64,000 nt of DNA from Schmidtea polychroa (taxonomy: Eukaryota): assembly GCA_044892525.1 (NCBI GenBank), contig CM097888.1, positions 51,398,001 through 51,462,000 on the forward strand, given 5' to 3'. The translations under genes were made by a program, and so were the position numbers. Positions 21,112 through 47,852 of the stretch are shown here, in pieces. How positions within the stretch are numbered: the stretch's first letter is position 1; each line of letters opens with the position of its first letter. The notes beneath the pieces are model-generated. The model searched no databases. It was given only the letters and a program-made list of their open reading frames with translations, and had not been told where the DNA came from.

Positions 21112-21620
21112 NNNNNNNNNNNNNNNNNNNNNNNNNNNNNNNNNNNNNNNNNNNNNNNNNNNNNNNNNNNNNNNNNNNNNNNNNNNNNNNNNNNNNNNNN
21201 NNNNNNNNNNNNNNNNNNNNNNNNNNNNNNNNNNNNNNNNNNNNNNNNNNNNNNNNNNNNNNNNTAACAATTTCCTCACTGAACATCATTGTTTAAATTA
21301 TGACAAAAATAAACATCAAAATTAAATATTTTTTGACGTTGTTATTGATGTTAACAATTTCCGAAGAAAATGAATTCTAGAGTAAATAAGCGAAAGTTTT
21401 TCAAGTTTTATCTGATGAATTTTCATCTACTTTATGTGAATTTATGGGTAATAATTAATACTGACTATTATTGTCGATGTTTAATAAAGACCCATTCGAA
21501 TGGATGCGAGAGTGTGAAGAAAATTTTCCCGTCCTAGAAGAGTTCCCATTAAGAATTGTGGTGGGACAGCTCGGGTGAATATATGTCGGTGAATGAGCGA
21601 TTCTGTGCAATTTATCAATT

Positions 21621-22590: not shown

Positions 22591-23846
22591 TAAAAAGTTT
22601 TTTTACTTATATTATTTTGCTCTTTTTAGTCTTCTCAAATCTTACAACCGATCTTCTGCCAAAACCAATCTTTTTCATATGTGCATTTTTTACGCAGAAC
22701 ATATTTTTTCTCCTGGATCGCGACTTTTAATGAATTTTTCAGTAATGCAATACATAGATGGAATATAAAATTCCGTCATACTTGCGTTTTTCACCTTAAA
22801 CAGATCGGTTAAGTATAATTAAGTTCTGAAAGTAGTAAAATATTGTGTTGTCATAAAAAGCAAGCATGTATACAAAATTTCAGCGAAATTGGATTATTGA
22901 AAGTGCTACAAAATTCGATCGAAAGACTTGACCCGAACATACAAGAAACCAAGTTAAGAAAAGCGTGGTAAAAACTCTTTTTAGAAATGTCTCTTAAAAT
23001 CTAATGTTAAGTATTGTCTTTGGTTCTCTTTTCGTAACCCAACCGTATTTCCTGTCAAGTATTATGGCACCTTTTTTACAGCGCAATCGGTATTACTGAC
23101 TATTCTAGCTATTCTGGTAGAAAAGTACAAGACTGGCTGACACATACGAACCATTTATTGAAAAAAATGTAAAAATCACATTTTGCGAAAAATGAGTTAA
23201 ATAATAATAATTTTAAAGGAAATTGCAATTAAACAGATTTAATTAATTTTTCTGAAAAGGTTATTTTCTACTACTTTCAAAATAAATCACTGCTGGGGCA
23301 CCACTCTGTTGACCATCAATATTTCCATTTTCGTCCTAGGGGATGAGTGCCCATTTATGATTACGCTTATCGTTACTTTGTCAACCCTGAGTAGAGCCCC
23401 ACATAACCTGTACTCCAACATAGCACCTGTGAATTACTTCACGTTGGAAATGTGCTATGCCGACGAGACGCCAGTAAGCAGGTGAGCCCCTACCTTAGGA
23501 CTACTCCTTACTGAGGCCTCGACTTCCTACCTCTGACCGCCGATAGAAGGACTTACGTCTACTCAGTTCATCACCCCATTTCAACACCTTTCGTTTGGAT
23601 TGCACACTGATCAATACCTCTCGAATGCTAGAAACTGTTAACACTATTTCCCTAACTTCATGCCGAATCTTTTATAAAAAGAAAATATATCAGGACGAAA
23701 ACTATTTATTTTTTACATTGATATACAGAAAACATCGACGATTTACACAGCAGATATACAAGGATAAGAGAAACGCAAGAGTAAAAACGTGATTAGTTCG
23801 ATTTCAGATTTCTCCAGTGGATCATGTCAGGTTCACGGGAATGTTC

Positions 23847-24596
23847 TCACTTTTCCCACTCTGTATCTGCCAGCAGTTCTTCCAGGTCAAAGAATTCGGA
23901 GGCGTTTTCCTCCCATGTCACGCCGGCGGCTGAGATAATCCGTGCCGGAATTCCTGTCGTTAGATCGATGGATATATGCGAATTGTCAGTATTGATGGTC
24001 GTTCCCGTTGAGGGGTCGTTGGATTTCGTTGATGCTCGTTCGCGCTGCCTCTGCTTGCGCTTGACTCGAGATAATTGCTTACGCTTGGGTTTCGAAGTGG
24101 ACGGATTATTTTGTGATACAGCTGATGAAGACATGATATTGGGCTGTACTTTGCTAATCCTGGTGATGACAAGGTCCGGACATTTGGGAGAGAGCTCGGT
24201 CTCTACGCAATCGTGACAAGACTTCGTGAACGGAGATGAAGACTTGGCGGAGGTATCGTGATGCACGGGGAAGATGTTGTCTGCTTCATTTATCGGGATT
24301 TTGACAATTCGTCGCGTTGTTGCTGCTTGTAAATACACCTTGTGCAACGCTTCTGATTGTTCTTTTATCAGGCTTCTTTGTGCACGACTCTCAGAAATTA
24401 GAGCGTCACGACAATGCTCGCTTCGATATAATTTTTTATTGACTTCCTTCATTTGAGCGGGGGTAAACCAGGTACCCTCCAACTCGTCTATCTTCTTCTT
24501 ATAACGCCCTATCTGAGCTTGTAAGTCCTTGATTATCATATTCTTATCTGAGCAGGAAAAACAGGGCCGGAGAACAGGTTTTGTATTTGGTAGCAT
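23847..24596 (-). CDS. Uncharacterised 249-aa CxxC/coiled-coil protein of element A
   Basis: Intact ORF, about 52/80 identical to the 35348 ORF in the N-terminal domain. Acceptor TCTTCTTACAG 9 nt before the ATG; AATAAA at 23705-23710. Confidence 0.8.
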   Translation of the reverse strand: MLPNTKPVLRPCFSCSDKNMIIKDLQAQIGRYKKKIDELEGTWFTPAQMKEVNKKLYRSEHCRDALISESRAQRSLIKEQSEALHKVYLQAATTRRIVKIPINEADNIFPVHHDTSAKSSSPFTKSCHDCVETELSPKCPDLVITRISKVQPNIMSSSAVSQNNPSTSKPKRKQLSRVKRKQRQRERASTKSNDPSTGTTINTDNSHISIDLTTGIPARIISAAGVTWEENASEFFDLEELLADTEWEK

Positions 24597-26460
24597 GTCT
24601 GATAGCTGTAAGAAGAGATAAAACTAAATAGAATGAAACTAAATTTGCAAAGTCATCATTCCGACACAATCGTGGGTCTCTTTATTAGAACTTCCTACAG
24701 CAAGGAGACGGAGTCAACTAGCAAGAGGAACTCCCCCCCCCGACCATAAATCTTTATCCCTTTGCGATTTATTAGTTATAGGAAAATCAACTAGTAACAC
24801 ATACTGTTGCTTAACGAATGTAGTACCTTGTTGTTGAAAAAATGAAAATTCTATATTTGTGAAATTCGTGAAAATTAGGTTTTTCCTTGAAAATGTTAAA
24901 TCGTATTCAAGAGCTCAACGCCAAATATAAGACTACTTTACAAAAAGGAAATTATACAATATGAAGATTTGATAGATTTTTGCGATTAATCAATTTTAAT
25001 TAATTATTATTGGTGAATATTAAATTTAAAAGTTCTAAAATTTAGACCTACAACGTACAATCACACGCCATTCGTTATCTATGGTAAATTGCAATCCCTC
25101 AGTACTGATGACTGTTATCTAATAATATGAATACCACATGGTGTGTACCGGATGGAATCTCTCACTACAGCCATTTATCACGAATTTACCTAGTGTCAAA
25201 TCAAATATTCTGAGAAAAAGCTAATGGTAGCAACATATGGGAAATTCTCGGATAATGATATTAGATAATGCTGTATTGACGCTAATGAGTGTCCACATGC
25301 GAATTCTACTGCTGGAACTAGGACTACGTGTATTTGCGTGTGTGTGCATGCACGGGCGGGCAGCTGCTCTATGAAATTCTATCGGTTAGCGTTGTAGATT
25401 TGGATTTTTCAGATATTACTGCACTGAGTTGATTTCTATCGTACGCGAAAATTGAAAACACGAAATTCCCTCTCGTCGCTCGTTGGATATATTATTTTCG
25501 TGGATGATTTATGGAGCCATTTAGGACATATTTATCGATCTTTACTCTCTGACAATGATCATTTTGCATTTGCTCAACAGAAGCGTGTTTTATACACTGA
25601 CTCGTATGCAGGTAGTTCGTGAACATTTTTCATTTTATGTAATCTCAATTTTATGATATTGCTATATTTTATTAAATGGTTACCATACTACCGGAGTAAG
25701 TATCTTAACACGAGATTCATCATCAGAGCCAATTTCGAGTGGTCATTTCGAAAGGAAAAATTAAAAATCAGATAGATGATGTTTGCCCTACTGATAGAAT
25801 TGAAAGATCTGGATTTATAAATTTTCAAAATGCGAGAATTATGGAAAGATTGCAGATGCGAAGCATCTAGACTCGCTCATTCACTGTGAATCACCACTAC
25901 TACTTTTCCTATACATTAAAAACGATTTTGCTTCTTACTTTTGACTTTTCTATATGCATTTTAAGTGACCTTCAGCGTTTGGACCCGTGAAGAAGCCACC
26001 ACATTTCGGCCCAATCTAGCTGCGTGATTGAAAAACTTCATGTCCACCGGCTGAGCTCCCGAAGGTACCTCACACCATGACATGAAGTTTCTCAACTCCA
26101 CGTTACTCAAGAAGTTGAAAATCATAAACTAATAATTCATAAAGCTAATTATAAACTGTGAAAACTATTATAGGTACTGAAATCATTTACTTAATTACAA
26201 TCATTAATAGGGATCAAATGAAAAGAAAACTATTCAAATTAAAATTTTAATTATTCATTAAATAATCATAATTACTATTAACTTTAAAAACAAACAAAAT
26301 GTAGAATAAAATCTCCTTACTATCGAGTGTGGGCTTAGTCGAAAATATAGTAATCGTCTTTCAAAAATTGTCTGATGATTTCGGATCCTGTGGTTCTTCG
26401 AATATCGATTTCTACTGTTGATTATGCTTTAGCTTTGAATTGGTTGTGAGTCGCTGCTAT

Positions 26461-26590
26461 CTATGAAGTTTTTTGAATTAACCGTCTCATAATTTAAAGT
26501 TTCTTACCTATGAAGTTTTTTGAATTAACCGTGATTTTTATGATTTTGGTGCCTGCTTATATATCAATTTTTCATTTATGCGGACCAATC
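26461..26590 (-). promoter_or_regulatory. Element A promoter with duplicated 25-nt first exon and 47-nt mini-intron
   Basis: GATTGG, TATATAAG, then ACGGTTAATTCAAAAAACTTCATAG|GTAAG...ACGGTTAATTCAAAAAACTTCATAG| (repeats 26508-26532 and 26461-26485). Confidence 0.65.
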
Positions 26591-27935
26591 AAAATTGAGT
26601 ACCGCTTAATTTTTTGAATTAATTTGTTTTTTCCTATTTCTTTAGGTATTTTCCTTATTTTTCCTATTTTTATTATACCTTTTATTTATTTCTTAAATTC
26701 CTTATTATTTGTTGCATTTTTCGTTATCTTATTCGTCATCTTTTTACCTTATTTTTAATTTTCTCATTTTTATTTTTTGTTTTAATCCTTATATCGTATT
26801 TTATTGTTTCTTTTATGTCTTGACTTATTTATTTTAAAATTTGTTGTCTTATTTTATTTTATTCACATCCTATCTGTCTTAATTTCCGACGATTATATTT
26901 TCGACTTAGCCCAACATCACTCATACATATTTACTTCCTAAACAAATTTTTTGTTCATCAACTAGTATTTTGTTTTTTCATTTAATATGAATTTTCGGCA
27001 AAGACTTGTTTGAAAATTTTATTTGAAAACGGTAATGAAAAAATCCGTATTAACTATGCAACAAAATATTGATCGATAATCTAAAAAAGAAATGAAGATA
27101 AAAGAAAAAAAACATTTCACACCAAATATTTTTGAACAAAAGATTATCAGACTAACTCAAAACGAATTTTTGGAATTTTTAATCAACATCTATCTACCAC
27201 AGGGTGCAAATTTTAGGATTGATACAATATTTTTATTATTCAACTCGTTACACTCAAAGTAATCTCTTTTATTTTTCAGTATTTGCAAATAATCTACTTT
27301 AATTAAGAAAATGAAATAACTTATTTTCATTATTAATATCCTCTTTTTCAATTTTGGTCTGTAATTTATTATATCACTTTAGTAAAAGATCAAATATGAA
27401 TGTTGCTCACAAGTGTTTGTATTGTTCATAACTTAATTATTTTATACTCCTCGACCAGAATGACTAAACATTATTATTATATTGATAAATTTTATAATAC
27501 AAACCCGTTATTATAATCAAGAGTGAAAACAAGTGGTATTTAAAAAAATTACAATAGGCATAGACGAAGTGAATAAATAAATAAATTACTTTGCTCAAAT
27601 AAATCAAGCACAGACTATTTTCAATTTATTTTTCTTGATTTTTCTAAGTTTTTCAGAAATTCTGGTCATTGTCTTGATCAAATGGTCTATTTTGTTGAAC
27701 TATATATTTCAACGGGATAACAAAATTAACGTTTAATTGTTAATTTTCGAGCTATTTTCATTCATAATTTTATTTAGGGTTGCAAGTATTGCTTCGATGT
27801 TGACCCACAGAAAAAGAATTTTGATGTTATATAAAGACGGTGTAATAAAACATCTACTTACATCTACACAATATATTAAATTTATTTTAAGAAAATAAGA
27901 AAAAATAAAAATTCAAAATTCATCATACCATATAT

Positions 27936-29111
27936 AGACTGCCAGTCTCCAGATGATTAAGCTATCAGTGGTATCGACTGTCTCAACTTAGAACCCAGAT
28001 CACTTGGACCTAGATTATTGGTAGTCACTATATAAACCAAATGGTAAATTTGAATTAACCCATTGACACGATTCGAAGAATTATCATAGAAAGCAAAATT
28101 TCTGGGTCAAAATGACGATGTTGATATCCTTAATGTTATTTATCTTCATTCTTTTAGATTATATCAGTTAATGTTTTGCTTTAAAATAAACATTGATTTA
28201 AACTTGATAAAAACTATTGGGAAGATTTTAGTTTTAAATATTTAAATTCAAAATAATTTCTACTTAAAGTTGTAAATAATAAAAATTATTATTTCTGTAA
28301 AATTAATAATTAAAATTCTTAACTCAGCAGAAAATATATATTTGTTTAAATTCTCTGTTATATTCATTTCAAATTGACATTTTTAAATAAGCATTTCGAT
28401 GGTATCAGAAATTGGAATTATTAAATAAATCATTTCGACTTTTTTCTTTGAGTTCTATTGTATTAATAATAAATTTTATAATTTAAATAATTCTGAATTA
28501 TGATTTATTTTTACCCTGAATATTTAATATTTTTAAAAGTATCATTTTATATACAATTTAAGCATTTTAAAGATTAATTACGATGCTACGTTTATTTTAT
28601 ATTAATTATTATTGGCATTAATAAATATATCGATATGAAATTGTAAAAATGGTGGCGATCGTGTTTTATTTTATCTTACATTTAGTTATTAATGAATAAT
28701 ATTTTGTCAATTAAATTTATAAATGGTTACTGTTACATTATGAGTTTTAAATAGCTTTTTAAATTTGAAATATTAATGTTTATATCGATATTAGCATTTA
28801 TTAATCGTTATTTCTTGCCACTTTAATCGTTACTGGAAATACTGCTAAAGTACAGGGCCAAAATGTCAACCGCTAAGTGTATATTTCCCATCGTTTTCTG
28901 TGAAATATAAAATATTGAGAAATCAATATATACAAAAATCTAAAGCCGAGTGGGACAGCTAGGAATTTCAACATCATCTTGTTTACCCGGACACTCCAAA
29001 TCGGGTGAATTGGAAACTTATCATATTATAGATATGACCACATATAATCTTGGTTCTAAGTTGAGGCAGTCGACACCACCGACAATCTAATCAGCTAGAG
29101 ACAGGCAGTCT
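27936..29111. mobile_element. Non-autonomous TIR element (~1.18 kb, ~65-bp diverged TIRs)
   Basis: AGACTGCCAGTCTCC...GTCTCAACTTAGAACCCAGAT at 27936 is the inverted counterpart of ATCTTGGTTCTAAGTTGAGGCAGTCG...ACAGGCAGTCT ending at 29111. No TSD resolved. Confidence 0.65.
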
Positions 29112-30701
29112 GAATAATATATAATGAATTTTTTTATTTAATTTACTTATAATGAATTGAATATATTGCGTAAATATAAATAGATGTTTTCATTAACCTC
29201 TTACTAATCCTCTTTCTACAACAACAAAATTCTTTCTATCGGTCAACAGCGAGGAGTTAATGTGTTACCAAGTAGTCAAGGTCAATTTTAATTGTTTCAA
29301 ACAATGGAATTATTAATGAAAATAATTATTTGTAATATAATGGGAAAATGTTTAGATGGATTCGAGGATTTACGATAACGGCTATATCTCAGTCCGAAAC
29401 TCTTTTTTGAATACATATTTTTAACATATTTATTTTAATCTTAATGATTATATTTCATTTTCAAAACGATTGAGAATAAAACAAATTTCAGTTTCTAAGT
29501 TATAATATTTCTTATTGAAAAATTATTGTAAATATCAAAATGAATATATTTATTAATAATTAAGGTTTCATTCTCTAAAAATTAATTCTAACACCAAAAT
29601 ATCGATGTTATGGAATTAAATCATAAAATGTTGGGACTTATATCAGATGAAATTGTTAATTATATGAATATTGATCCGATGCTGATCCGACACAGAGCAT
29701 AGATGGTATAGACAGCAATCTAGGCCTGATTTATCATTTTATGTAAAACAAACTTTATGCAATTTTTATGTGTAATTAATTCATTGTTTCATTCAATGGC
29801 GTTTATGTAGGTTTATCCGATAAATTTTATTGTACAAAATACGTACTGGTTTTCATCTATTCCTTTATTATTGTATTTAATCGACCACTTTGGCGACCCC
29901 TGGTTTGGGGCATTAAATGAGAGTAACAAAAATACAAATGTTTTTAATGCAATAATCTTATGATAATACAAATGACTATTTTTGAAAAATTTATAGTTAT
30001 CTAATCTAAACTAAGTCTACTATTCTACGCTAATTCAAAATTTCTGAAATAATTATAAATTTTTAACATATCCAAACCAGTTTGAAACCGCAATCATCTG
30101 GTTACCTTTCCTTATTTGTTTGCATTGGAGCTTTCTTATTTTCCTTCCTGAAAATTCAAACTTTTTTGCAAGAAAATTTTGTGATCACGTAATGTATGTT
30201 TAACCATATTTTAAATTTCTGTATAACTTCTCAAAGGCTGGGAAATCTGATTGAATAATAGATCAAAGATCCGTTCTTGTGTCTTCATTATTTATAAGGT
30301 TCTGAAAGGGAGTATATTGGACAATTTAGAACTTTTTATATCTATTGTTCATAATAAACATGAATTTTTAAAATAATAGTTCCATTCCAGTGAAATAGAC
30401 AATTAATTCTGAAAAATTGATGCATTTAAACAATTAATAAATCTTATGAAAATTACACTTTGTGTAGTACATCAGCCCCCCCCCCCCAAAAAAAAATAAT
30501 TGGGGAATTTATGCTCATTCATTAAAGAAATATCAGTTTTTTTATATTTCTTCATATTCTAGCCTATCAAATCATTTCATTAAATAAAAGTATATTTACA
30601 ACTATGTTATTGGTTAAAAATAATGCTTTAAATTGTAGAAATTAAACAAAATGGATAAAAAAAGAATTGTTAATACTAAATTGAATAAAAAGAATTTATG
30701 G

Positions 30702-31844
30702 ATGTCTAATCTGACTTATTCCGATTTAAAGGCCCAATGGAAGTTTATAGACAGCCCCTGGGATTTATTGGTACCCTGTGAGGAAGTCAAATTAAAACAA
30801 ACTAATGAAAATAATAATTTGTTTTGTGTTTTCAGTCAAATAATGGGATTTTGGTCGGCATTCATTTTCCCAGTGATTTCAATTTTTGGTATTTTCCTTA
30901 ATATTTTAATTATTTACATTTTTAACTTTAAATTCCGAGATAAAAGTCGGCAGTATATTTATTTATCGTTTCTAGCAGCCTTTGATTCGTTCAATCTTAT
31001 CTGCTCGGGATGGATGTGGATATTTTTCGCTAAGGGTTTACCATATGCGTCGTCGGGAGTTCTTTATTTTTTCACTTACAATCAAGGAGTGATACCTTGT
31101 AAACTTCACCGCTACTTTACGGCAGCAATTTCTTGTTCAGCGATTTCAATTTTTCTGTTGACCTCGATTGATAGATATTTTGCAATATTTTGGCCGCTAA
31201 AATGTTTGAATATCCCACTGAAAAGATCTTGGCAATATTCATCGATGGTCGTTTTGTTGAGCTTTATAGCGATGAGTCCTTTTATTGTCTACATGGACCA
31301 TAGTCAGACTGGAAACCATAAAACGATTTGTTGGCTAGAAGCATCAAAAGATAAAAAATCTTTAGGAATGTTTTTGCAGATTTATAATATTCTTTTTTCA
31401 TTTTGTGGTTCCTTTCAAACTTTGGCGATTATTTTATTTAATTTAAGTTTATTTTATCAAGTGAGTAAAGGGCAAAGGTTAAGAGAACAAATACAAGCAG
31501 CAAATTGTAAGAATATCAGAAAAGAAATATCTGCTTGTGTGATTCTTTTAGTTTTATCAGTTCTTTTTGCAGTTGGCTCATTACCAACTTCCATATCGTT
31601 CATTTTAGCTTTCCTCATGCAAAATGATACAGGACCAGATGCTGACCAGCGCTTGAGATTCATTTACAATATTGGTGATGTTGGTTGGCATTTATACATG
31701 GTACAACAATGCACAAACGGGTTGATCTATTACTGGAAAATGTCTCATTTCAGAAATATTGTGAAGAAAATATTCAAAATTCCCATTTGGAATAAAATAC
31801 CCAAAAGTCAGAGCACACTGAATGCACATTTATCAGTTCGATGA
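30702..31844 (+). CDS. Intronless orphan 7TM GPCR paralogue (380 aa from the conserved MSNLT start; upstream in-frame ATG at 30651)
   Basis: MSNLTYSDLKAQWKFIDSPWDLL start, canonical DRY, colinear with the other paralogues. Confidence 0.9.
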   Translation: MSNLTYSDLKAQWKFIDSPWDLLVPCEEVKLKQTNENNNLFCVFSQIMGFWSAFIFPVISIFGIFLNILIIYIFNFKFRDKSRQYIYLSFLAAFDSFNLICSGWMWIFFAKGLPYASSGVLYFFTYNQGVIPCKLHRYFTAAISCSAISIFLLTSIDRYFAIFWPLKCLNIPLKRSWQYSSMVVLLSFIAMSPFIVYMDHSQTGNHKTICWLEASKDKKSLGMFLQIYNILFSFCGSFQTLAIILFNLSLFYQVSKGQRLREQIQAANCKNIRKEISACVILLVLSVLFAVGSLPTSISFILAFLMQNDTGPDADQRLRFIYNIGDVGWHLYMVQQCTNGLIYYWKMSHFRNIVKKIFKIPIWNKIPKSQSTLNAHLSVR

Positions 31845-32039
31845 AAAATATGTTTGGTGGACTTTTTATTGCACACATTTATCATTTTTATATTGAATTG
31901 AGATTAGAATAAATATTACCTCTCGTTTTGACATAATACACCTGTTTGCATGGAATAAAAGTATCTATAATATAAAAAAATCAATACTCTTATATTATTA
32001 AAACAAACAAACTTACCTTTGCACAGAATTTTGATGTAG

Positions 32040-32040
<1 letters not shown>

Positions 32041-32124
<84 letters not shown>
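32041..32124 (+). repeat. (ATT)28 microsatellite
   Basis: 84 nt of perfect ATT repeats, adjoining the distal end of the inverted Penelope pLTR fragment. Confidence 0.97.
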
Positions 32125-32277
32125 GAATAAATAGTTAAACATACATGGCAATGATTTAATTATAAGATAACGCCAATCAAACATTTTTTTCACGATTAAT
32201 TTCGACAGTTTTCCTGTCATCATCAGGTGGGATATAATACTCATTAAATAAAGGATTTTAAACAAATTTAATTATAT
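32125..32277 (-). mobile_element. Inverted pseudo-LTR fragment of a Penelope-like element
   Basis: Reverse complement of 32232-32270 matches 37250-37287 (AATTTGTTTAAAATCCTTTATTTAATGAGTATTATAT), the 3' UTR of the GIY-YIG ORF. Contains a hammerhead motif. Confidence 0.75.
32191..32229 (-). ncRNA. Minimal type I hammerhead ribozyme of Penelope pLTR type
   Basis: Minus strand CAC-CUGAUGA-U-GACAG-GAAAA-CUGUC-GAA-AUUAAU-C-GUG: stem I CAC/GUG, stem II 5 bp, palindromic stem III AUUAAU, cleavage triplet AUC. Confidence 0.8.
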
Positions 32278-32776
32278 TGTTGGGCTAAGTTTTGAAGTAG
32301 AGAAAAACTGGGTTAAATCGGGAAACGAGCCGCAAAAAATATAAACGAAATATAATAAAAATAAATCCCCATCAAACCTCAATAATAAATAAGGAAACAA
32401 TAAAATACCCATAAAAAGAAATAAGAATAAATGATAAATAAATAAAGCCCTTAAGAATTAGAAATAGGACATAAGAGAAATGAGTTAAAGCACAATAAAT
32501 AAAGTAAAAATAGAATAAGCAAAAAGGTAAGAGAAAATAAACGAGAAATTAAAGCAATAAATAAAAAATAAAAATATCTTTAAGTTTAATTAAAACAAAA
32601 ATTGCATTATGATAAAGTAGCAGTGAACCCGCAGAAAAAATAGGAGAAAAATAAGAAAAATAGGAAAAATAAATAAAATAATAATAAGAAATAAGTTAAG
32701 TTATTAAAAGCTAATATATTATAATAAAAACATAAAATAATAATAAATAATAAAAATTACAACCTAACTAAGTCCT

Positions 32777-32892
32777 GATTGGACGGAAAATAGTATATAA
32801 GAAACGCTAAAAATCAGTAGAGTACCACTTTAATCAAAAACTCTACAGGTAAAATTTGTTAAGTTTGACCACTTTAATCAAAAACTCTACAG
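32777..32892 (+). promoter_or_regulatory. Element B promoter with duplicated 25-nt first exon and 44-nt mini-intron
   Basis: GATTGG 32777-32782, TATATAAG 32794-32801, ACCACTTTAATCAAAAACTCTACAG at 32824-32848 and 32868-32892, GTAAAA donor at 32849. Confidence 0.65.
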
Positions 32893-35347
32893 ACTCTACA
32901 GGTTTCAAGACTTTATTCACAAACTACTACAGAGGACTAATCCAAAGAAGACTAATTTGAATTGAGGAAGAAACATACAGCGAACTATTAACAGCATTAT
33001 TCCGGAAAACCTTAGCCAATTTAACCCAGTTATTTAATCTCAAGGTATGGTAGGATATTTTTAGGTTTGATTTTATGATAGATATAATGGAATTTAATAA
33101 ATATTTATAATTGATATTAAATTTTGTAAATAACAAGGAAAATTTGTTCAATAAATTTATTTAAAAACAGAACCTGCCTTTCTTCATGGTGCCGACGACT
33201 GTACCTTCTGATGATTTCAAGTATGATGCCAAATGGAGAGAGTAGCCCCGAGGAATATTATGATATGTAGCCAAGAGATGTTGCGAGGATATTGGATCAG
33301 GAGCAAGCGATAATAATGGATACGATGCCAATACTGTAAGGGAATATTGGGTTGGAAAATGAGAAAGCATCATACTTGGAACTCAGACGATATGGTCGTC
33401 GGTAATTTGATTCATTTACTTGATTATTATTTGTTCCATTTTTATTATTTATATCTGAAATTTGTTTTTAAATTGCTGAATGCGAAAGAGTCGACTGGTC
33501 CCTCGTGATCGTCCGAGAATGGCGGCAGAGATGATTGCCTTCTTGGGTGTGTTATGAGGGGTGTAGAGGCTCAGTAGGTTAGGATAACAGGCTGAAGGAT
33601 GGAATTTCTTCACCGAGCTCGCATCGTTCTTAGTAAGTTCCATAGCTTCAATAAGTCACCTCGATACTTCTAATAATAGCGGAGGAGATTTAAGTTGAGA
33701 GCCGAAGACAGTTCGGAGTTGAGATTGACAATTTCATCAACGTATTAAGAATCCACATAGTTCGGCGAAATTTCTTCATAACGGTCAACCCGTCAGTCGG
33801 GATAGTGAACGAGAATGTTGTCAACAAAGCTTGGAGTGTAAATCCAGTAAATCTCGTAGAGTATTGTTTTCCTCGGTATACTAGTAGAATCTGAACCGTC
33901 GATATGTTAGCGATGACACCCGTCGACGAATGTACTTTTAAGTTAAGTGATTAGCTTCGAATCGCTGATAAACATCGTCTTCCCTGAAAAGAATGTAAAT
34001 AAGTAGGAGAGGTTATCAGATTACTCACGGATAAATGACAGAAATCGCTGACAGATTTATCAATTGATCACTGACTGAATCGAGGAACCACGATAGGAGT
34101 TATCAGTGACTTGAGAAATGAAATGCCGGCAGATGATAACTGATCGAATTAAATGACCAACGAAGCCAGATAACACCGATAATAAATTTCCACGAGGGAT
34201 AATCTAATTGACGCGCGGGTAGACATTGTCTTGTACTGGCTGCGTAATGATCAAGGCAGATTAAAAATTCTAGCTTAGTTATTGCTCATCGTTTTACTAC
34301 GTACAATTCCAGGGTGATGCTCGTAGAACACTCAGTGATAATTCCAATATATTATGTAACTGCACACACCTACACACTCCATCGTGAATCGTCTCCCAGG
34401 AGGATAGCAGAGTACTCTTGGCATTGGAATTTGGCCGTGATGTCACGATTACATAGTAACCTACTCGTAATTCCCTGAGTTGGTAGGCTGGTGTGTATGA
34501 ACAACAGAGCAGATCGTCTCCACTGCGATTTAATACGACGTCGAATTTTCTCCACTATCACATAGAAATAGACACACATGAAAGCTCAAGGTGGAGATAC
34601 TCCAACAATGCATACCGACTCAGTTAATAAATATAAGAAAATGCACACATCTACAGGTAGGCGTCACTAGGGCGACAGAAGTAGCGCGATTTTTAAAAGA
34701 ATTTTTGGAATTTAAATTATAATATAATTAGCTAATAGTATATATTTAAAGTCCTTTATGTAAATTCGTAATCACAATGCGTCATAAGGAGAGATAAATT
34801 TTTCCTGCGTTCTAGCAATACGGAGTAGGTACAAATTAATAAACTGAAATCCCCAACAATCGGATGCTATTCTTTTCCATTGATTACGAACGTAAATATG
34901 TTTGACTATAGCAGCCGGCTAAAATGCAACGAGTATGAGTTATCCGACCCGAGGGTAAAGATAGATTTTTCATCGAACCAGTTAAAATCGAGGATTCCCC
35001 GTTTTCTACTCTCCATCCTCTTGAATCAATAAATCGATCGGAATGTTGTTTCCTAAATGAGTGAATGAGGAGTGTTGAATTGTGTGAAAACAAGTTGTTT
35101 TATTGTATGCTGTGGCGTGGTATGATGAGTGAAATCTTTGAGTTTAGTGTCTCGATAGAATTTGGAACTAGATATATTTTAACCGTTAAAACGGATTACT
35201 AGAGAAAACTTAGCTGAGACATTAAAAAACATGAAATTTATGAATTAAGACACTTCGTGAAAATTACAGAATTATAACTAATGAATTCTTGTACTGGATA
35301 CCTTAATAAGTATCGCAATTCGGTTTGAACCATGATTAATTTTCTAG

Positions 35348-36109
35348 ATGACAACACCATCCAATAACGCCCAAGAACTTCGTCCGTGTTTCTCTTGCGC
35401 TGACAAGAACTCGGACATCTCTCAACTTCATTTATATATAGGGGCCCTCAAGAAGAGGATAGATCTTTACGAAGGAACGTGGTTCTCCCCGCCACAGATG
35501 AAGGAGGAAAAGGCTAAGATCCTCAGGTTAGAACATTGTAGGGACAGCCTACTAGAAGAAAGCCGATGCCAAAGGCTCACAATAAAAGCACAATCAGAAG
35601 CCCTCCATAAGGTCTACACGGAGGCAGAAATAGCAAAGCGGGTACGCGAATATCCCGTATTGGATGGATCGAATGTCTTTCCTCTCCATCACCAGTCATC
35701 TACCACTCCCACCTCAGCTTGTCGAGGGCACGGTTCCCATCTACCGCCCATCCCAGCCCCAGTGCTGTCAGGATACTTACCTATGAAAGGCGGTCCATCT
35801 GACCCAATTCTGGTCCCGATCCTAGTGGCACCCACAGTATCTACTGCTGTTGGAGGAAATCCGCCATCACGCAAACGCAAACACCCAACTAGGGCCGAGA
35901 AGACTAAGAAACGAAGAAATGCAATGAAGGCGCTCGAGGCTTCTTTGTTCGCAGCGCAGACGACAATAGCAGAGATATCCACCACTCATACGATTCCCTC
36001 GAAAGAAGTTTTCCGTATCATTCCAGCTAACGGCATCAAGTTTATCTCGGATTGTAGATTGCCGGTAGACATCGACGAGTTAATTGCCGACGGAGAAAAC
36101 TTCAACTAA
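35348..36109 (+). CDS. Uncharacterised 253-aa CxxC/coiled-coil protein of element B
   Basis: Intact ORF homologous to 23847-24596. TTTCTAG|ATG acceptor context; AATAAA at 36308-36313. Confidence 0.8.
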   Translation: MTTPSNNAQELRPCFSCADKNSDISQLHLYIGALKKRIDLYEGTWFSPPQMKEEKAKILRLEHCRDSLLEESRCQRLTIKAQSEALHKVYTEAEIAKRVREYPVLDGSNVFPLHHQSSTTPTSACRGHGSHLPPIPAPVLSGYLPMKGGPSDPILVPILVAPTVSTAVGGNPPSRKRKHPTRAEKTKKRRNAMKALEASLFAAQTTIAEISTTHTIPSKEVFRIIPANGIKFISDCRLPVDIDELIADGENFN

Positions 36110-36400
36110 AACGGTTCGCGAGTGATCCTGAATGTATTTCGAGTCGTGAATTGACTGATAAACTTCGTTAATATTGTGCATCCTAACCGTCCATATGATA
36201 TTGTATTAATAAGTGTGATGATGTTTGTTTATTTTCATTTCGGTATTAATATATTTTGTCTATTTGGTTCTGTTTTATAAAGATTTTCATATGTTTGGTT
36301 TTTTGAGAATAAAATGGTTCAGTATTACGGAAGGAAAGCTAGTAGGCTAACGGTCGTTCCCTTGGACCAGGATCGAACCAAGACTGAAACATGAATAAGG

Positions 36401-36645
36401 GTAAGTCCTTCTAAGGCACCAGTGAACCTGAACCGCGAGCGGGCTATCAGTAGTCCTAAAATAGGGGCTCACCTGTTAGTCAGCTCCGACCCGTATGGGC
36501 ACTACCAACGTGGAACATCATCACGGGCTCATGCGTGGGAATATGTAAATGATCATTTGGCGTATGCATGGGAGGTGTCTGAGCTAACCAATGCGGTCGG
36601 TATGATAATGGTTGTGTAAGTTTTCTTCTCCCTCATATGCCAACA
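36401..36645 (+). ncRNA. Putative structured cis-RNA module at the 3' end of element B (homologue at 23291-23556, minus strand)
   Basis: Blocks GTAAGTCCTTCTA, AGTAGTCCTAAnnTAGGGGCTCACCTG and CCAACGTG are shared with element A. The flanking helices differ in sequence but keep their pairing. Confidence 0.55.
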
Positions 36646-37287
36646 ATATATAAAAAAAATTTGCCGTACTCAGAAGGCTTTAAGGATTATAAAGTGAAGA
36701 TAAGAAAGCAGTTAGGGAATTTAAACTATAGGATAGTGTCAACTTCATGGAAAGTACGCAATATGTTTATTAATAAGTCAAAAACTCCGGTTGAATTGTG
36801 TTCCGATCTCGTTTATCAGTTTACATGTAATGGATGTAATGCTACATACATTGGAGAGACTTCCCGTCATCTCTGTATTCGAGCTCGAGAACATTGTAGA
36901 CCGAAGTCTTTGACCCATATTGGTGAGCACAATAAGGGCTGTAAAATTAAAATAGGTATGTCTGATTTTAAAATTTTATTAAAAAACTTCGATAATTATT
37001 TGGAACGTGTGATTTGTGAGGCGTTGTTGATAAAATCATTAAATTCGAAAATTAATGTGCAGAATGCAGTAAATACTTGTGTGTTGAGTGTTTTTAAATA
37101 AGCTTTTGTGTATTGTATGTATTGATTGTTGTGTTAAATTAAATAATGAATAAAAATTTTTTAAATTGTTAAACTAAAATTTTAAATGTTAAAGTTTTAA
37201 AAATAATATTTTTTAAAAAATGAAAAAAATTTTTTTTTATATATAATAAAATTTGTTTAAAATCCTTTATTTAATGAGTATTATATT
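36646..37287 (+). mobile_element. 5'-truncated Penelope-like element: GIY-YIG endonuclease ORF (to 37101) plus 3' UTR/pLTR
   Basis: LVYQFTCNGCNATYIGETSRHLCIRAREH...EALLIKSLNSKIN. The listed ATG at 36637 comes from the end of element B, so the ORF start is chimeric. Confidence 0.88.
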
Positions 37288-38673: not shown

Positions 38674-41237
38674 TTAAATTGTTTTAAGTTTATATATGTA
38701 TTAATTATAGTTTTTTATATTGTTGTTGGAATCATGGGGGGGGGGGGGTAAACCCCCAGTACCCCCCTGCGTACGCGCATGGGCCCGAGCCAAACACACC
38801 AGGAAATGGTACCTCCTTAAACATTTATTAGCATATATTTGTTTAAATGAAGTGATTTGTATATAATTTTTTATTATTTGTTTAAATTGTGTAATTTTAT
38901 TTTCAGATTTCTTATAAATATGAAATTTTTAAAAAGGCCTTAATAGAAATTTTCAATAACAAATTAAAATAAAATCATTTTTATGGGGTTACCATTTCCT
39001 GGTATATTTGACTTGACCTTCTGATATTACTGCTATAATCATCTTTGACGAAATCCAATAATGATATTTTCAGTGCCTTTGTTAACCATGCGTATGTATT
39101 GCAATGTCCTAGTTAATTATGCACTTATGTGGCAAATTTATTAGTCATGCAATTATATTTGTTTACCATGGCAAATTCTTAGCCAATTTAGTGAAAAATA
39201 CATGGTTATTTTAAATATAGAGCAATTTCTTAAGTAAGTTAGTAAAATATGATCATTTTCAGACAAAATTTAGCAATTCACAAACAATTTAGTTAGAAAT
39301 TCATGCATCTTGTCATGCCATTTAATTAAAATATGATTATCCGACAGTTCTATTCACAAGTTATATAGTACATAATAACATGCCACCTCATTGCGAATTG
39401 ATTTAGACGGGTTCACCATGCGCGCATATTAATTAATCACCATATCAAATGGTTCAAATTAATTGTCAAAGAAAGTTTAAAATAAAAATTATTAATAAAG
39501 CTGAAATCTCATTGGCTAATTTTAGTCTGTCCGATGTGCATAATCATAAAAATTAAAAAGTAAGCGTTTGTTATTTGCGGCTCCTCGTTCGCAAATATAA
39601 TTTATTTGATCCAGGAAAATGAAGAATATATAATCAAAAATAAAAATAATGAGAAAATAAACTAAATAATGATATTATCAGTAAATGAATGTCAATACAA
39701 AATGACAATAACGTAAAATTGCAAAAAGATAATTAATTCAAAAAATGCGTTATTATGAAATTGTTCTATTAAATGCTAAAAATGCTTGTAAATATGAATT
39801 ATATGAATTTATTGCAAAATCCTGCAAAGTCATCCCCTTCCTCATACAGAGAAACCCTCTAATTGTTAGATATATACGCATTAGAAGTGGTCACAATAAT
39901 ATTTTGCTTTGGCCTCTCTTTTACATGAAGCAACCGATGAAGGGCGTCTTTGAAACTCAGCATTTTCCAATAAAATACCAAGCCATTTGTGCATTGTTGA
40001 AGCATATAAATGTTCCATCCAATATCACCAATATTATACGCAAATCTTAAACGGTCTTCAGCTTCTGGATCTGTTTCATTCTGCATAAGAAACGCCAAAA
40101 TAAAGGAAATCGACGTTGGTAGCGAACCGATTGTATACAATATAGATAATACAAGTAAAATGACACATGCAGACATTTCCTTGCGTACATTAGAGCAATT
40201 TGCGGCTCTAATTTGATCCCTTAATTGTTGTCCTTTATTTATTTGATAAAACAATGCTACATTGACAACAATAATTGCAACAGTTTGGAAAGATCCGCAA
40301 AATGAGAATAATACATTATAAACTTGCAAAAAGGTTGCCAAACCTTGCTCATCAGTTGAAACTTTGATCCAACAGAGAGTTTTCTGATTCCCAATTTCAG
40401 TGTATCCCATATAGATGGCAAATGGACTCATTAGAATGAAGCTAGATATAATCACTCCAATTGAAGACTGCCAAGCTCGTTTAAGGGGAATGTTTAAACA
40501 TTTTAATGGCCAAAAAATAGCAAACCACCTATCAACTGATGCCAACAGAAATATGGAACTGGCAGAACAAGAAATAGCTGCTATAAAGTAGCGATGAAGT
40601 TTGCATGAAATTTCCCCTTGGTTATAAGTGAAAAAAGAAACCTTTCCAAAAGAAGCATATGGTAATCCTTTAGCAAAAAAGATCCAAATCCAACCGTAAC
40701 AAATAATATTTACCGAATCACAACTAGCTATAAATGACAGATAGATATACTGACGAGTTCGGTCATGGAGTTTGGAACTTAATATATAAATGGTTATCAT
40801 GTTTGATATAATGCCAAATAGGGAAATTATGGGGAGGATGTAAGCTGCCCAGAAGCCCATTATATGGCTAAATATACAGAATACGAGAGTATTTCTTGTT
40901 GATTTATTCAACCTCATTTCCTCACAAGCCGTTAATAAATCCCAAGGACTGTCAACATATTTCCAACGAGCTTTCAGATCTAGAAACGTAAAATTAGACA
41001 TTATTAAATTTGTAAAAATAACAATTAAATTGCATTCGATATAAATTGCATAAATTCCGATGATTTGATTGGTTGATCGCGTAAATGTGAAAGTGCAAAA
41101 GCATTCAAGCGCGAATTGTTTTTACGTGGAAAACTCTTTTATGGCAAATTATTTGTTTTATTGTTTTTTAAAATGAAAAAATGTTTGAAACGATTTTCGA
41201 TTTCCTGAATTTGTCACAATTTGTTTAATGCATAAAA
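38674..41237 (-). repeat. Arm 2 of the inverted duplication; includes the MITE end (38781) with the same TSD
   Basis: Reverse complement of 14282-16848 with scattered substitutions. The GGCCCGAG TSD copy is at 38782-38789. Confidence 0.9.
39859..41001 (-). CDS. Intronless orphan 7TM GPCR, near-identical to 14516-15658
   Basis: 380 aa with four substitutions seen (MKLN/MRLN, AGCD/ASCD, KMPS/KMLS, KEGP/KERP). Confidence 0.9.
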   Translation of the reverse strand: MSNFTFLDLKARWKYVDSPWDLLTACEEMRLNKSTRNTLVFCIFSHIMGFWAAYILPIISLFGIISNMITIYILSSKLHDRTRQYIYLSFIASCDSVNIICYGWIWIFFAKGLPYASFGKVSFFTYNQGEISCKLHRYFIAAISCSASSIFLLASVDRWFAIFWPLKCLNIPLKRAWQSSIGVIISSFILMSPFAIYMGYTEIGNQKTLCWIKVSTDEQGLATFLQVYNVLFSFCGSFQTVAIIVVNVALFYQINKGQQLRDQIRAANCSNVRKEMSACVILLVLSILYTIGSLPTSISFILAFLMQNETDPEAEDRLRFAYNIGDIGWNIYMLQQCTNGLVFYWKMLSFKDALHRLLHVKERPKQNIIVTTSNAYISNN

Positions 41238-42359: not shown

Positions 42360-42645
42360 TTATTCTCAAGGTCGATGATAACAGATCAAATTGATGATTT
42401 CATTGATTATGAATGTATTCCAGTGTTGGCAATCTGTTTATAATGAGAATTGCTTCTTTGAATCTGACATTTTCTTTGGATGTTTCCATTGGCTACGATT
42501 TTCATTGAAATATTTTTTCTTTCCTTTCTTGGCTGAATTGTTGGAGATGTCTGTTTACCGATGATTTTCCACCAGGATCTAGATGTTCTTTAACTCTTTG
42601 GTGCAAGGTCCTGATTGTACTTCCAATGTATATTTCCTTGCATAA
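42360..42645 (-). pseudogene. Second Penelope-like GIY-YIG remnant, split by the gypsy insertion (upstream part 47853-47937)
   Basis: Joining the flanks over one TSD copy gives ..IMCN(L/V)CKEIYIGSTIRTLHQRVKEH; upstream reads ENCQTPKDMCFRKNIVY. Confidence 0.8.
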
Positions 42646-42873
42646 TGTTAATAATAACCAGTTAATAATCTAGAAATAGTTATTTTTAATACAAAATGCA
42701 AAATACAAATTATTGCTCAAATCTGGTATTATTAAAACACCCGATTTAAATGGCGAATTAATTAATTAAATAATAATGATAATTATGCGTGCCAGCTTTT
42801 ATACTTATTATACTTTTTCTTATAATATAATATATATTTTATTTATAAATTAATTATTTAAATATCCCTAACA
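42646..42873 (-). repeat. 3' LTR of the gypsy element (228 bp)
   Basis: TGTTAATAAT...CCCTAACA on the plus strand, preceded by the PPT on the minus strand. Confidence 0.97.
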
Positions 42874-45800
42874 TCTCCCCTGTTTAAAAGATTTTAGCCA
42901 TTCAACGTTGCGGATTATAATTTTCCCATCTCTGTCTTGTAATTCATAACTATTTGCATGGATCTTTCTAACAATTACGAAAGGTCCTATATATCGGTCC
43001 TCCTCTTTTTTTCTCAAATCTACTTTAACTAAAACTTCTTCATTTATATCGAATTCTCGGTGTATTCGGTTTTCATTTTTATAATTTAAATTTCTTTGTT
43101 TTGATTGCACTTCCTCCACTATTTTACTTCTATCGTTGTATATTCTTTTATTATTGTTCCATTCTCTAGATATCCGAAAACTAAATACTGCTTCTGATGG
43201 ACTCTTTCCAGTTGTGCTTTGAATGGTAGCATTTAAAGTAAACTCAATTTCAGGTAACACTTCAACCCAATTTCTCTTAAGTTTATCTCTTAATGATGTA
43301 CTGATAAAATCTCGTATTGTTCGAAATTGTCTTTCAATCAAACCATTAGTGTTATGATGATAAGGGCTAGAAAATTGTAGCTGTATATTGTGATTCTTAG
43401 CCAACTCTTTTATCAAGTTAGACTCAAATGTTTTTCCACAATCAACATGAATAATTCTCGGTGCCCCGTATTTTAATATCCAGAATTTCACAATAGTATC
43501 CGCTGTAGTTTTTTCGTCCTGCTTTGCTACTGCTGTCAACGAAATGTATCGACTACACATATCTATAATTCCCAAAATATATTTCTTTCCATGAATGTTT
43601 GCCTGCAAAGGTCCACAAAAATCTATCGCTATAACCTCAAATGGTTCCGCCACTTGTGCTTTTACAATTAGTTCTTTTGTTTTTGTTGTCAATGTTTTTC
43701 GTTTCTGGCATATTTCACAACTTTGAATATATTGAGTCGCGATTGTATTTAATTCCTCCATATCGTAATTAACTTTTATATAATCGATTACCTTCTTGCA
43801 TCCAGCGTGACACAACATTTTGTGCATCTCTTTGACAAATTCTATTCTATTTACTTTTGGAATCCAAATTTTATTTTCTCTTGTTAAAATTAAATCTTCG
43901 ATGATTTTAAATCTTGTAGTCTCATTTTTATCTATTGCTTTTCTCATATGTTCTATCTCTTCATTACCTTTTTGCCATTGCAATCCATGTTTAGTGGCTG
44001 TCATTGTCAGCAATCTGGTTTTTACTTTCTCTGTCTTGGCATCTTCATGGATTTCCATACACTGTGTACATTTCCCACATTTATCTCTCGATAATGCGTC
44101 AGCGTTCGAATGGTCAATTCCTTTTCGATATTTAATATCCATATCTAAACTACTCAAGAAATTTATCCATGTCTGAAATTGTGCCGTTATAGGTTTTTTT
44201 GTTGTCATCATAAATGTTATAGCCTTGTGATCCGTTCTTAGCTGGAATCGCTTGCCGTAAAGATAGTGCTTAAAATGCTGTGCAAAGTAATAAATTGCTA
44301 AAAGTTCCTTTCTCGTGATACAGTATCCTATTTCATGTTTACTCATCGTATGTGAACCATAGGCAATAACACGTTCATTACCTAGATCATCAATCCGTGA
44401 CAAAACAGCTCCTATAGTGTCGAAACTGGCATCCGTATCCAAAATAAATTCTTTCTCATAATCAGGATATATTAGAACTGGTGTAGTTGATAGTGCTTTC
44501 TTCAATTCCTCAAAACTTTCTTGACATTCTTTTGACCAAACTAACTTATCTTTATTGTTTCCGCACATCGATTCTAATATTCTTGCGAATTTTGAATAAT
44601 TTTTTATAAATTTTCTGTAATAATTACACAGTCCTAAGAAACTCCTCAATTGCTTTAAACATTTTGGTCTTTGAAACCCCTTTATTGCTTCTATTTTAGC
44701 TTCATCGACTTTAACACCTTCGCAAGTTATAATGTGACCAAGAAATTTTGTTTCCTTCACCAAAAATTTGCATTTTACAGGATTTATTCTCAATCCTGCT
44801 TCTTTTATTTGTTCTAATACTTCATTTATTCTTTTTATATGATCTTCTTTGTCTTTTGAGAATATTAAAATATCATCTAAATACACTATAGCAATTTTCC
44901 ATAATAATTTTCCTAAAACCATATTCATTAATTTTTGGAATGTAGCTGGAGCAGCAGCAATCCCAAATGGCATCCTATTAAAGCAGAACTGCCCAGATCT
45001 TGTTGAGAACGCTGTCTTTTCTTGCGAATTTGCTGTCAATTCAACCTGATAATATGCGCTTCCCAGATCAACGGTGCTAAAGTACATTGATCCATTTAAT
45101 GAATCTAACATCTGTTCGATATTAGGCATTGGGAAGATTTGTCTTTCTGTCATTTTATTTAAACTTCTAAAATCTAAACATAATCGAATATCATTTTTCT
45201 CCTTCTTCCAGACACATACTAACGGCGTATTCCACGGTGAGTCACACTTCCTAATTATGCCGTTTTCTTCCAAATTTTTAATAGCTTCTTCAATCTTTTC
45301 TTCTAGGTGGGCTGGCTGTCTTCTTGGGTTCAAATGGATTGGTCCTTCAACAGTTTTAATATCATGCTTTAATAGATTGGTTTTGCCTATATCCCACTTA
45401 TCAATCATAAATACTTCGGCATTTTTTTTTATTACTCCATAAAGTTTGTTGTCACACCTTAATCCTATAAATTCTATTGCTCTTTTAAATCGAAGTTTAT
45501 CACTCGTTCTTTTCCCAAATTTGGCTTCAATGTTGCATAGTTCCATATTATTATATTCGCTTGCATTTTCGATGTTATTTCCGATAACTTTCATTAGTTT
45601 TATGTCAAACCTACGTAATAAATCGATTCCTCCAATTATCGATGGAGATACATTTTCAACTACTACAAAAACAATATTTTCTTCTCTACTTCCTATATTT
45701 ATTCTAAGCTTGATTCTTCCCAAAGTTTTTAATGGACTACCATTTGCGCACCAGATTTTGTCTCCGTGTTCGTTTATAACTGGATTTCCGATCTCCTTTA

Positions 45801-46555
45801 TAATCGAACTATCAATCACATTCATTCTAGCTCCTGTATCCAACAAACAATTCTTAAAGTAATTATTTATGCCTATTATTACACTTGGACGTCCACCCAT
45901 TTTATCATAAACAATATTATACTCATCCTTCTTCAAATATGTTTCACTTCTATATTGTATTTTACAGTCACATGTATCAAATATTTTATCCTTTTCATTA
46001 TGTACATAAATCATATTTTCTGGTTTTTTTAATTTTTTTACGTCATCTATCGATAAAATCTGAGTACAATTATTTTTACATTCTTTTTTATTATCGTCAT
46101 CAATTTTTAGTTTTTCAAAATTGTTTTCATTAGGCATATTTAAAATAATTGCATCATGAATATCCGTAACTTTATTTTTTACACTTTCTATTATATCACA
46201 TTGATTCGCTTTTTTAAAATTTGTTTCTAGCTCATTATTTTTTTCCAACTATATCGATATTTCCTACAATTCTACTGCTACCATTATTTCTGATTACATT
46301 ATTCTCATCCAACATTTTATTATTTACTTTATTTAAATTATCTACTAAAGGACTTATACTATTCACGTTATTATTAATATTTTCTACATTATATACATTA
46401 TTTACAAAAGGAATTATACTATTCACTTTACTACTAATACTATTAATATATTTATATTTACTTATACAATTATACTGGCATACACAATGGTCATTATTAC
46501 CCATTAATTCATTGCTCCGATCATCTCGCCCAACGATGGAGCTTCTTGGTTTGGG
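42868..46555 (-). CDS. pol: Pol (protease, RT, RNase H, integrase), reached by -1 frameshift; one-base break in an A7 run at 46238-46244
   Basis: LLDTGA, YLDD, LDTDAS, HHCC, DDE (IDFCG, VDCG, IER) and GPF motifs in 42868-46248. That ORF starts at TTG just after a TAG. The bridging -1 ORF 46235-46573 fuses to it if one A is removed. Confidence 0.88.
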
Positions 46556-47625: not shown

Positions 47626-47852
47626 GTTAATAATAACCAGTTAATAATCTAGAAATAGTTATTTTTAATACAAAATGCAAAATACAAATTATTGCTCAAA
47701 TCTGGTATTATTAAAACACTCGATTTAAATGGCGAATTAATTAATTAAATAATAATGATAATTATGCGTGCCAGCTTTTATACTTATTATACTTTTTCTT
47801 ATAATATAATATATATTTTATTTATAAATTAATTATTTAAATATCCCTAACA
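47625..47852 (-). repeat. 5' LTR of the gypsy element (228 bp)
   Basis: Identical to 42646-42873 except CACCCG/CACTCG, followed by the PBS. Confidence 0.97.

Follow-up and report, generated by a model that had tools for sequence, protein, structure and literature searches.

The LTRs of Burro-like giant gypsy retrotransposons in Schmidtea polychroa carry at their 3' end an RNA fold that is, on the comparative evidence, real and well supported. The motif occupies the last approximately 290 nt of the LTR and lies directly 5' of an 18-nt primer-binding site (PBS) for tRNA-Pro. We favor the possibility, to which we would give a probability of about one half, that its three arms and terminal hairpin serve as a platform for loading or activating the primer in the 5' leader of the element RNA. 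The two copies described here, A and B, are solo LTRs of such elements within a stretch of 64,000 nucleotides (the window); their features are collected in Table 1, and all of the evidence comes from this one genome.

Table 1. Features of elements A and B (positions in the window)
Feature	Position	Strand	Remarks
Element B, solo LTR, Burro-like giant gypsy	32278..36645	+	4368 bp, TG...CA, target duplication ATAT
Element A, solo LTR, related family	23291..26916	-	3626 bp, 4-bp target duplication GTGA
Candidate promoter near 5' end of LTR B (CCAAT-box + TATA-box)	32778..32801	+	putative
ORF within LTR B	35348..36109	+	253 aa; begins directly after a splice-acceptor-like YAG
ORF within LTR A	23847..24593	-	homologous to B ORF, N-terminal half (53% over 118 aa)
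Poly(A)-signal-like hexamer	36248..36253	+	positionally conserved; would place the motif downstream, in U5
Anti-D-arm box of B	36353..36369	+	against tRNA-Pro nt 8-24: 16/17 positions pair, 4 as G-U
Arm 1 (block 1 of the earlier note)	36398..36421	+	3-bp outer stem, GUAAG internal-loop strand, CC/GG, T-loop-like UUCUA loop
Unpaired linker between arms 1 and 2	36424..36430	+	PAS-like; the PBS complement would run on through it into the T arm of the tRNA
Arm 2	36442..36481	+	stem X 36442-36450/36473-36481, capped by hairpin 36452-57/36464-69
Arm 3	36490..36540	+	stem A 36493-36500/36527-36534 or, one pair shorter, 36493-99/36528-34, CA-nnn bulge, CCAA (36505-08), upper stem 36509-12/36522-25
Terminal hairpin, last bases of LTR	36557..36643	+	36557-66/36634-43; directly 5' of PBS in 5' LTR copies
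Three-armed core of A	23413..23560	-	123 bits (A included in model)
Anti-D-arm box of A, in terminal arm	23332..23346	-	11/400 shuffles

Burro / GYPSM1 are giant gypsy elements of planarians, reportedly treated in Grohme 2018. The final 311 nt of B gave 41 matching places among the 40 scored of 1008 candidates, often paired and then 22-34 kb apart, and at 8 of the 28 B-end loci listed the LTR end was followed by the same short spacer and 18-nt site. This site is exactly complementary to the 3' end of tRNA-Pro(TGG) from the same genome, and the exact 18-mer was present at 68 of 70 PBS-anchored LTR ends, as expected of a PBS for a host tRNA. The paired copies have multi-kb TG...CA LTRs, measure approximately 30 kb end to end and are flanked by a 4-bp target duplication. 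Five of the eight internal ORFs of a paired B-type copy had Pfam families (including PF03732, PF24664, PF00078, PF00665 and PF21355), and the internal ORFs match gag, CCHC, a viral fusion glycoprotein, protease, reverse transcriptase, RNase H, integrase, RING and TRAF. Size, LTRs and gene content (gag, an env-like fusion domain, PR-RT-RH-IN and TRAF/RING ORFs) are thus Burro-like, the Burro/GYPSM1 elements being given in the available text as approximately 30 kb long with multi-kb LTRs, gag, an env-like region, PR-RT-RH-IN and RING/TRAF accessory ORFs (PMC6431247). From the paired LTRs, the PBS and the internal ORF anatomy it follows that A and B are solo LTRs, that the plus strand of B is the sense strand and that the motif is the LTR 3' end.

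Elsewhere in the window, a 46-nt inverted repeat abuts the left end of B (32232-32277) and recurs 600 nt past its right end (37241-37286); between the two lies an ORF (36583-37101) that we take to resemble the GIY-YIG endonuclease of Penelope-like elements, and B was probably inserted into another element. There is also a cluster of four intronless genes, labelled GPCR-like by eye (14396-15658, 19894-21267 and 30639-31844 on the plus strand, 39859-41121 on the minus strand), and the stretch 14379-16755 is duplicated in inverted orientation at 38762-41138, 98% alike. An ordinary 5.2-kb gypsy-like element on the minus strand (42645-47852) has two LTRs of 229 bp that are identical, and its gag and pol frames are open; the covariance model described below did not find the motif in it.

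A, B and an E-type LTR each contain, at a distance of 330-545 nt from the LTR 5' end, one pair of a CCAAT-box and a TATA-box. In 14 of 30 representatives a hexamer of the poly(A) type precedes the first loop of the motif by 148-166 nt. Given that both are upstream, the motif is most likely U5 and would be confined to the 5' leader of the element RNA. An earlier note, made from the sequence of the window alone, had placed it in a U5-like position on the ORF strand, and this is what we find, with 5' LTR copies continuing into the tRNA-Pro PBS; the gap that it gave between the ORF stop and the motif is likewise correct (291 nt in B and 290 nt in A, measured to block 1, the first of three sequence blocks that it described as invariant). 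A TATAAA at 36276 was rejected as a promoter because it is not conserved.

The ORF within LTR B had no Pfam family, and no homologue of it was found; in the Atlas its best score was 0.85, with nothing above, which is a lead only. Both solo LTRs have a promoter-like site, donor-like sites, an acceptor immediately 5' of an orphan ORF with a CxxC, a basic stretch and an acidic tail, and a poly(A)-like signal; either LTR may thus amount to a spliced gene complete in itself.

Taken singly, copies have unremarkable folding energies (z of -1.13 for B, with 12 of 100 shuffles, and -1.87 for A, with 9 of 200; z of +1.0 for the minus strand), so that the case for the fold rests on comparison. From 34 clusters comprising 128 distinct copies, four were dropped (two truncated, one deleted and one mis-anchored) and five added to give 35 representatives. 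When these were scored at 35 candidate pairs, 1076 of 1225 cells were canonical, versus 38% for mismatched column pairs, and three candidate pairs were rejected, being canonical in 7, 6 and 7 of the 35. Cells with G-U numbered 109 and cells with A-C 30, which identifies the ORF strand as the folded strand, as the earlier note had argued from its G-U pairs. Furthermore, we found that: (i) a 29-row alignment without type D was 90.4% paired with 20 of 32 pairs doubly changed, a level of pairing reached by 0 of 500 shuffles and compared with 31-43% in slid controls; (ii) on a tree, 38 double changes on the same branch preserved a pair, against a mean of 1.4 and a maximum of 7 in 2000 nulls, so that the larger alignment holds the covariation whose absence, according to the earlier note, would have spoken against the structure; (iii) a covariance model built without type D, the most distant family, recovered the D loci, 8 of 8, with scores of 50-57 bits; and (iv) the covariance model matched 26 of 29 further loci, the three misses being chance junction matches, and the further loci were 88.3% paired with 25 of 32 pairs doubly changed in an alignment fitted to the model. 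The model built without type D gave no match in the remaining window, nor did it in two internal stretches, in the interrupted copy or in the tRNA array.

Three other roles were considered for parts of the motif and rejected. A coding role does not agree with the 1- and 2-nt gaps in the alignments; a switch formed by pairing of block 1 with block 2 is unsupported, since block 2 covaries with its own 5' half; and block 2 is not a second PBS, its G run being lost in E, D and other families.

All of the helices quoted for B (stem X, stem A and the terminal helix) are present at their coordinates, as are those on the minus strand in A (CAGUAAG/CUUACUG, CAUAGCAC/GUGCUAUG and GUGAA-GUAA-UUCAC), and the terminal GGGGC/ACUC/GUUGAC helices of A are found in its fold. 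Other parts of the earlier description need to be narrowed. The three blocks are unchanged between A and B but vary across other families, being lineage-limited in sequence; block 1 is not a plain invariant sequence but a hairpin, arm 1, that had been missed; and the GNRA loop is seen in 50 of 58 A-type copies but is absent from the commonest loops of other types. The outer pairs of arm 1 exchange between families (GAC/GUC, GAG/CUC, GG/CC). Its UUCUA-type loop resembles the T-loop motif; U, U and A are invariant and a pyrimidine occupies the usual T-loop purine position. In arm 2 an A-U pair, a U-G pair (35 of 35 representatives) and the CAC bulge (36470-72) are invariant, and the upper pairs of the hairpin covary, meaning that block 2 as a whole is not. 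The register of arm 3 (stem A) is ambiguous, and its CCAA is nearly invariant. Every type has a terminal hairpin of its own, each individually modest: only 9 of 16 family representatives, an interrupted copy among them, had the stem at no more than 10 of 200 shuffles. A CUGAGY sequence (36579-36584 in the window) is seen again in the terminal loops of LTRs of the B and C types; it could pair with the freed 5' end of the tRNA or with the PBS.

To avoid selection by the motif itself, sampling was anchored on the PBS, which has 1,077 exact matches in the genome versus 0 in the control; the 70 sites fetched were the first listed on contig C1. The loop was present at 67 of these 70 ends and the CA-nnn-CCAA bulge at 68, one copy being broken by an insertion, and 58 had a strict UAGU...GCUCAC pattern, by which part of one family is overlooked. 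A two-block pattern of the fold had 7,286 genome matches versus 3 in the control, genome-wide counts here resting on sequence patterns and not on a search with the RNA model. There are at least five sequence types (A-E) as well as further variants. The E type, of which 25 copies among the 40 scored were identical, is young and has a 1.66-kb LTR without the LTR ORF; within the 10 kb examined, its gag extends up to the 3' LTR and pol is lacking. That this gag-only type keeps the fold argues for a cis-acting signal. Metagenome and viral contigs gave 0 matches to the exact block-2 pattern and 0 loci with Gag relatives, and a protein search gave 13 Gag homologues, as sequences without DNA context.

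Several arrangements of copies were seen in the course of this sampling. At L007, L051 and L081/L082 an LTR of one type lies 100-400 nt 5' of the motif, or at the LTR end of another type, which suggests that Burro LTRs hold an insertion hot spot. Four PBS copies spaced 15.8 kb apart on one strand (G000:C1:39424153-39471575) are probably a tandem array of elements sharing LTRs. A short multi-copy family with arms 2 and 3 and no recognisable arm 1 loop (L213, L216-L218, L222) is possibly carried inside another repeat.

Two stretches in addition to the PBS are complementary to the primer. The first is a box facing the D arm, for which the B copy gave -24.3 kcal/mol. None of 400 shuffles did as well for B, L069 or the relative L067, compared with 11 for A, and single representatives of C, D and E were not significant (80, 82 and 78 of 400), so that a second site in the D region is detected in the A and B types and not in these three representatives. 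Against 28 U5 regions, tRNA-Pro nt 8-25 gave -19.1 kcal/mol, as opposed to -14.8 +/- 0.9 for shuffled tRNA (0/100) and -14.9 +/- 0.3 for shuffled U5 sets (0/30), with the shuffles as controls, the D-arm window having been picked after the match was seen by eye and the counts not being independent, as the families are related. The other three tRNA segments were not significant against shuffled tRNA (16, 33 and 37 of 100, the anticodon segment giving 33 and the T-arm segment 37), and a scan along the tRNA had the D-arm window as its only 5'-half peak outside the PBS-paired end. The box lies at opposite ends of the motif in the two types, its distance from the LTR end being approximately 290 nt in B-type and 55 nt in A-type copies. 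Among 28 distinct A-type boxes, transitions were found at 59 of 308 positions facing a G or U of the tRNA, where wobble keeps the pair, versus 2 of 112 facing an A or C; the box sequences are related and the p value of 6e-7 is therefore overstated. The box also persists in families whose block 2 has lost its G run (L126, L130, L132, L136), so block 2 is not its partner.

The second stretch is the linker GAACCY, which would continue the PBS complement into the T arm as a putative PAS-type site. This 6-mer is present in 61 of 77 B/C, 19 of 21 D and 28 of 29 E copies (108 of 127 non-A copies) and in 0 of 58 A copies, and its T-arm segment is the one that gave 37 of 100 in the energy test. Both matches lie beside, not inside, the most conserved core. 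The primer-activation signal proposed in the earlier note gains direct sequence support from the D-arm box and the T-arm linker; the box is weak in C, D and E and the linker absent in A. The tRNA-Pro(TGG) genes themselves form a tandem array with 475-bp spacing (G000:C1 from 130.90 Mb, L099-L104), and the tRNA-Pro(TGG) pattern has 2,164 matches genome-wide; L229-L258 are a dispersed tRNA-like repeat, near-identical among the copies listed, with 5,976 matches to its pattern.

In our working model, the terminal hairpin would present the PBS and tRNA-Pro would anneal to it by its 3' 18 nt. The freed T-arm strand of the tRNA would be captured by the GAACCY linker, the D arm would pair with the box, and the T-loop-like loop, the CAC bulge and the CA/CCAA bulge would dock to form a compact core that could bind Gag nucleocapsid or reverse transcriptase and set up initiation. 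What speaks for primer loading is that the PBS is exact at 68 of 70 ends and the fold present at 67-68 of the same 70, and that the gag-only family, although pol-less, retains the fold. There is precedent for such contacts in that Ty1, Ty3 and HIV-1, in the available text of the accounts concerned, use extra D-arm, T-arm and anticodon contacts (PMC5371799, PMC3592414, PMC11251516). Among the points that tell against it, the most conserved core could serve another purpose, and box 2.1 of Ty1, one of the proposed extra boxes, formed in vitro and was not confirmed in particles according to the available text (PMC3592414).

As to what other purpose the core might serve, it is possible, if somewhat doubtful, that it is mainly a packaging signal whose bulges are read by Gag nucleocapsid in selecting unspliced genomic RNA, with the tRNA boxes as separate add-ons. 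The invariant unpaired bases and the invariant U-G pair look like a protein site, the parent Gag has CCHC knuckles, the gag-only family keeps the fold, and the core is universal where the tRNA boxes are not. However, retroviral packaging signals are found mostly 3' of the PBS, and a common kissing-loop is not indicated, as no self-complementary 6-mer is shared by all types (no 6-mer palindrome was common to the four type groups in 185 copies). Packaging fits the universal core as well as primer loading does, and the two are not exclusive.

Given that arm 1 contains GUAAG, a splice donor or U1 site could also be envisaged, with the fold, through exposure of this site, deciding whether the RNA is spliced, uses the poly(A) signal of the 5' LTR or is read through to full length. 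GURAG is found 5' of the loop in 140 of 164 A, B, C and E copies, and candidate promoter and poly(A) signals lie upstream within the LTR. Nevertheless, we regard such control of RNA processing as unlikely: GURAG is present in 0 of 21 D-type copies and yet their fold is kept, and the pairing of blocks 1 and 2 has the covariation of block 2 with its own 5' half against it. Contigs of X6 and X7, runs presumed to be RNA, cover the motif in B-type and E-type stretches, and no joint at the GUAAG site was among the joints listed for the B-type and E-type stretches in contigs of presumed-RNA runs. In a contig of X5, also presumed to be RNA, a poly(T) loose end lies approximately 10 nt beyond an AATAAA situated far upstream within the E-type LTR. 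These contigs are not proof of expression, of a transcript start or of splicing.

The CCAA of arm 3 raises the question of whether the folded tRNA is read in the manner of a T-box, CCAA reading the UUGG of the anticodon loop and the T-loop-like hairpin docking with the elbow before annealing. CCAA is a proline codon plus A and nearly invariant, its CC is kept in three copies (L086, L107, L112) despite a changed opposite G, and T-boxes, as set out in the available text, use a codon followed by a purine together with T-loops (PMC7583486). We nonetheless think this improbable, because the CC is paired inside its hairpin in 33-34 of 35 representatives, the UUGG at the start of the PBS is another possible partner, the only T-loop-like loop carries a pyrimidine at the purine position of the T-box consensus UGxRA, and no family with another primer, in which CCAA could be compared with the tRNA, was among the 13 junctions examined. 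A search for interdigitated T-loops (AGAGA and UGxRA) and for the Rfam T-box gave one UUCUA-type loop and no Rfam match. For CCAA, pairing with the anticodon loop, with the start of the PBS or only within its own hairpin is conceivable. That the core is a eukaryotic, independently evolved T-box-like device, with CCAA reading the anticodon and the hairpin the elbow before the tRNA is handed to the PBS and unfolded by the D- and T-arm boxes, which are movable, likewise seems to us a long shot; were it true, the primer would be chosen via RNA-RNA recognition and not by a synthetase or Gag alone.

The earlier note also raised an undescribed ribozyme-like motif. A compact multi-arm fold with invariant loop bases is what a self-cleaving ribozyme might look like, and the available text describes ribozymes as common in retroelements (PMC6765202). 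The search of Rfam 15 that the note had called for, covering 22500-37000 of the window (E up to 5) and 12 further loci (E up to 3), gave only chance matches below the gathering score and none to any family, the supposedly invariant blocks vary, and a cut made between the 5' end of the RNA and the PBS would presumably take away the repeat needed in strand transfer; a ribozyme is thus very improbable. A twister-sister likeness, noticed by eye, was not borne out by Rfam.

With regard to novelty, our literature search found no description of Burro LTR RNA structure or PBS, with Grohme 2018 and its supplement, which may bear on this, lying outside the search. The available text on Burro/GYPSM1 concerns proteins and leaves the PBS, the LTR ORF and LTR RNA structure unmentioned (PMC6431247), and that of three other papers has nothing on a three-armed structure (PMC8532177, PMC10886601, PMC11410931). 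The fold is apparently undescribed, and the primer contacts are of the kind known from Ty1, Ty3 and HIV-1. What is new, at the level of complementarity, is the D-arm box of A- and B-type copies and the linker extending the PBS match into the T arm.

What is known of structured leaders and additional contacts with the primer comes from a few yeast elements and retroviruses, mostly through mutagenesis of a single isolate. The many diverged families considered here, with their thousands of copies, provide a natural covariation data set from an animal gypsy lineage with an env-like gene, comprising a defined fold of approximately 150 nt absent from Rfam and a wobble-biased pattern of change as the evolutionary signature of D-arm pairing. 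This makes testable how Burro-like elements choose and unfold their primer, and the fold offers a sensitive means of annotating Burro LTRs, which are known to hamper planarian assemblies.

Among known systems, the avian U5-IR stem is a hairpin adjoining the PBS at the U5 end, and the placement of our terminal hairpin is a likeness to the HIV-1 and avian systems as far as the available accounts go. The resemblance to T-box stem I is to a codon-plus-A in a bulge and a T-loop-like hairpin 5' of the site for the tRNA CCA end, as given in the available text (PMC7583486); it is a resemblance only, our motif having a single off-consensus loop and no Rfam match, with K-turn, S-turn and interdigitated T-loops not seen. 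The likeness to the HIV-1 PAS and A-rich loop, in the available text, lies in an upstream linker that could pair with the T arm's 5' strand and in a possible anticodon contact (PMC11251516). Unlike in HIV-1, the strongest signal here is in the D arm and A-type copies are without the T-arm linker; the likeness does not extend to a demonstrated similarity of sequence or fold. Closest to our favored primer-loading reading are Ty1 (boxes 0, 1 and 2.1) and the bipartite PBS of Ty3, which in the available text likewise have extra T- and D-region sites outside the PBS (PMC3592414, PMC5371799). Compared with what is given there for Ty1 and Ty3, the primer here is tRNA-Pro, the PBS has the full 18 nt, and the boxes lie upstream inside the LTR at positions that differ between families, in a setting for which no counterpart is stated: the Burro-like boxes flank a large, covarying, three-armed fold.
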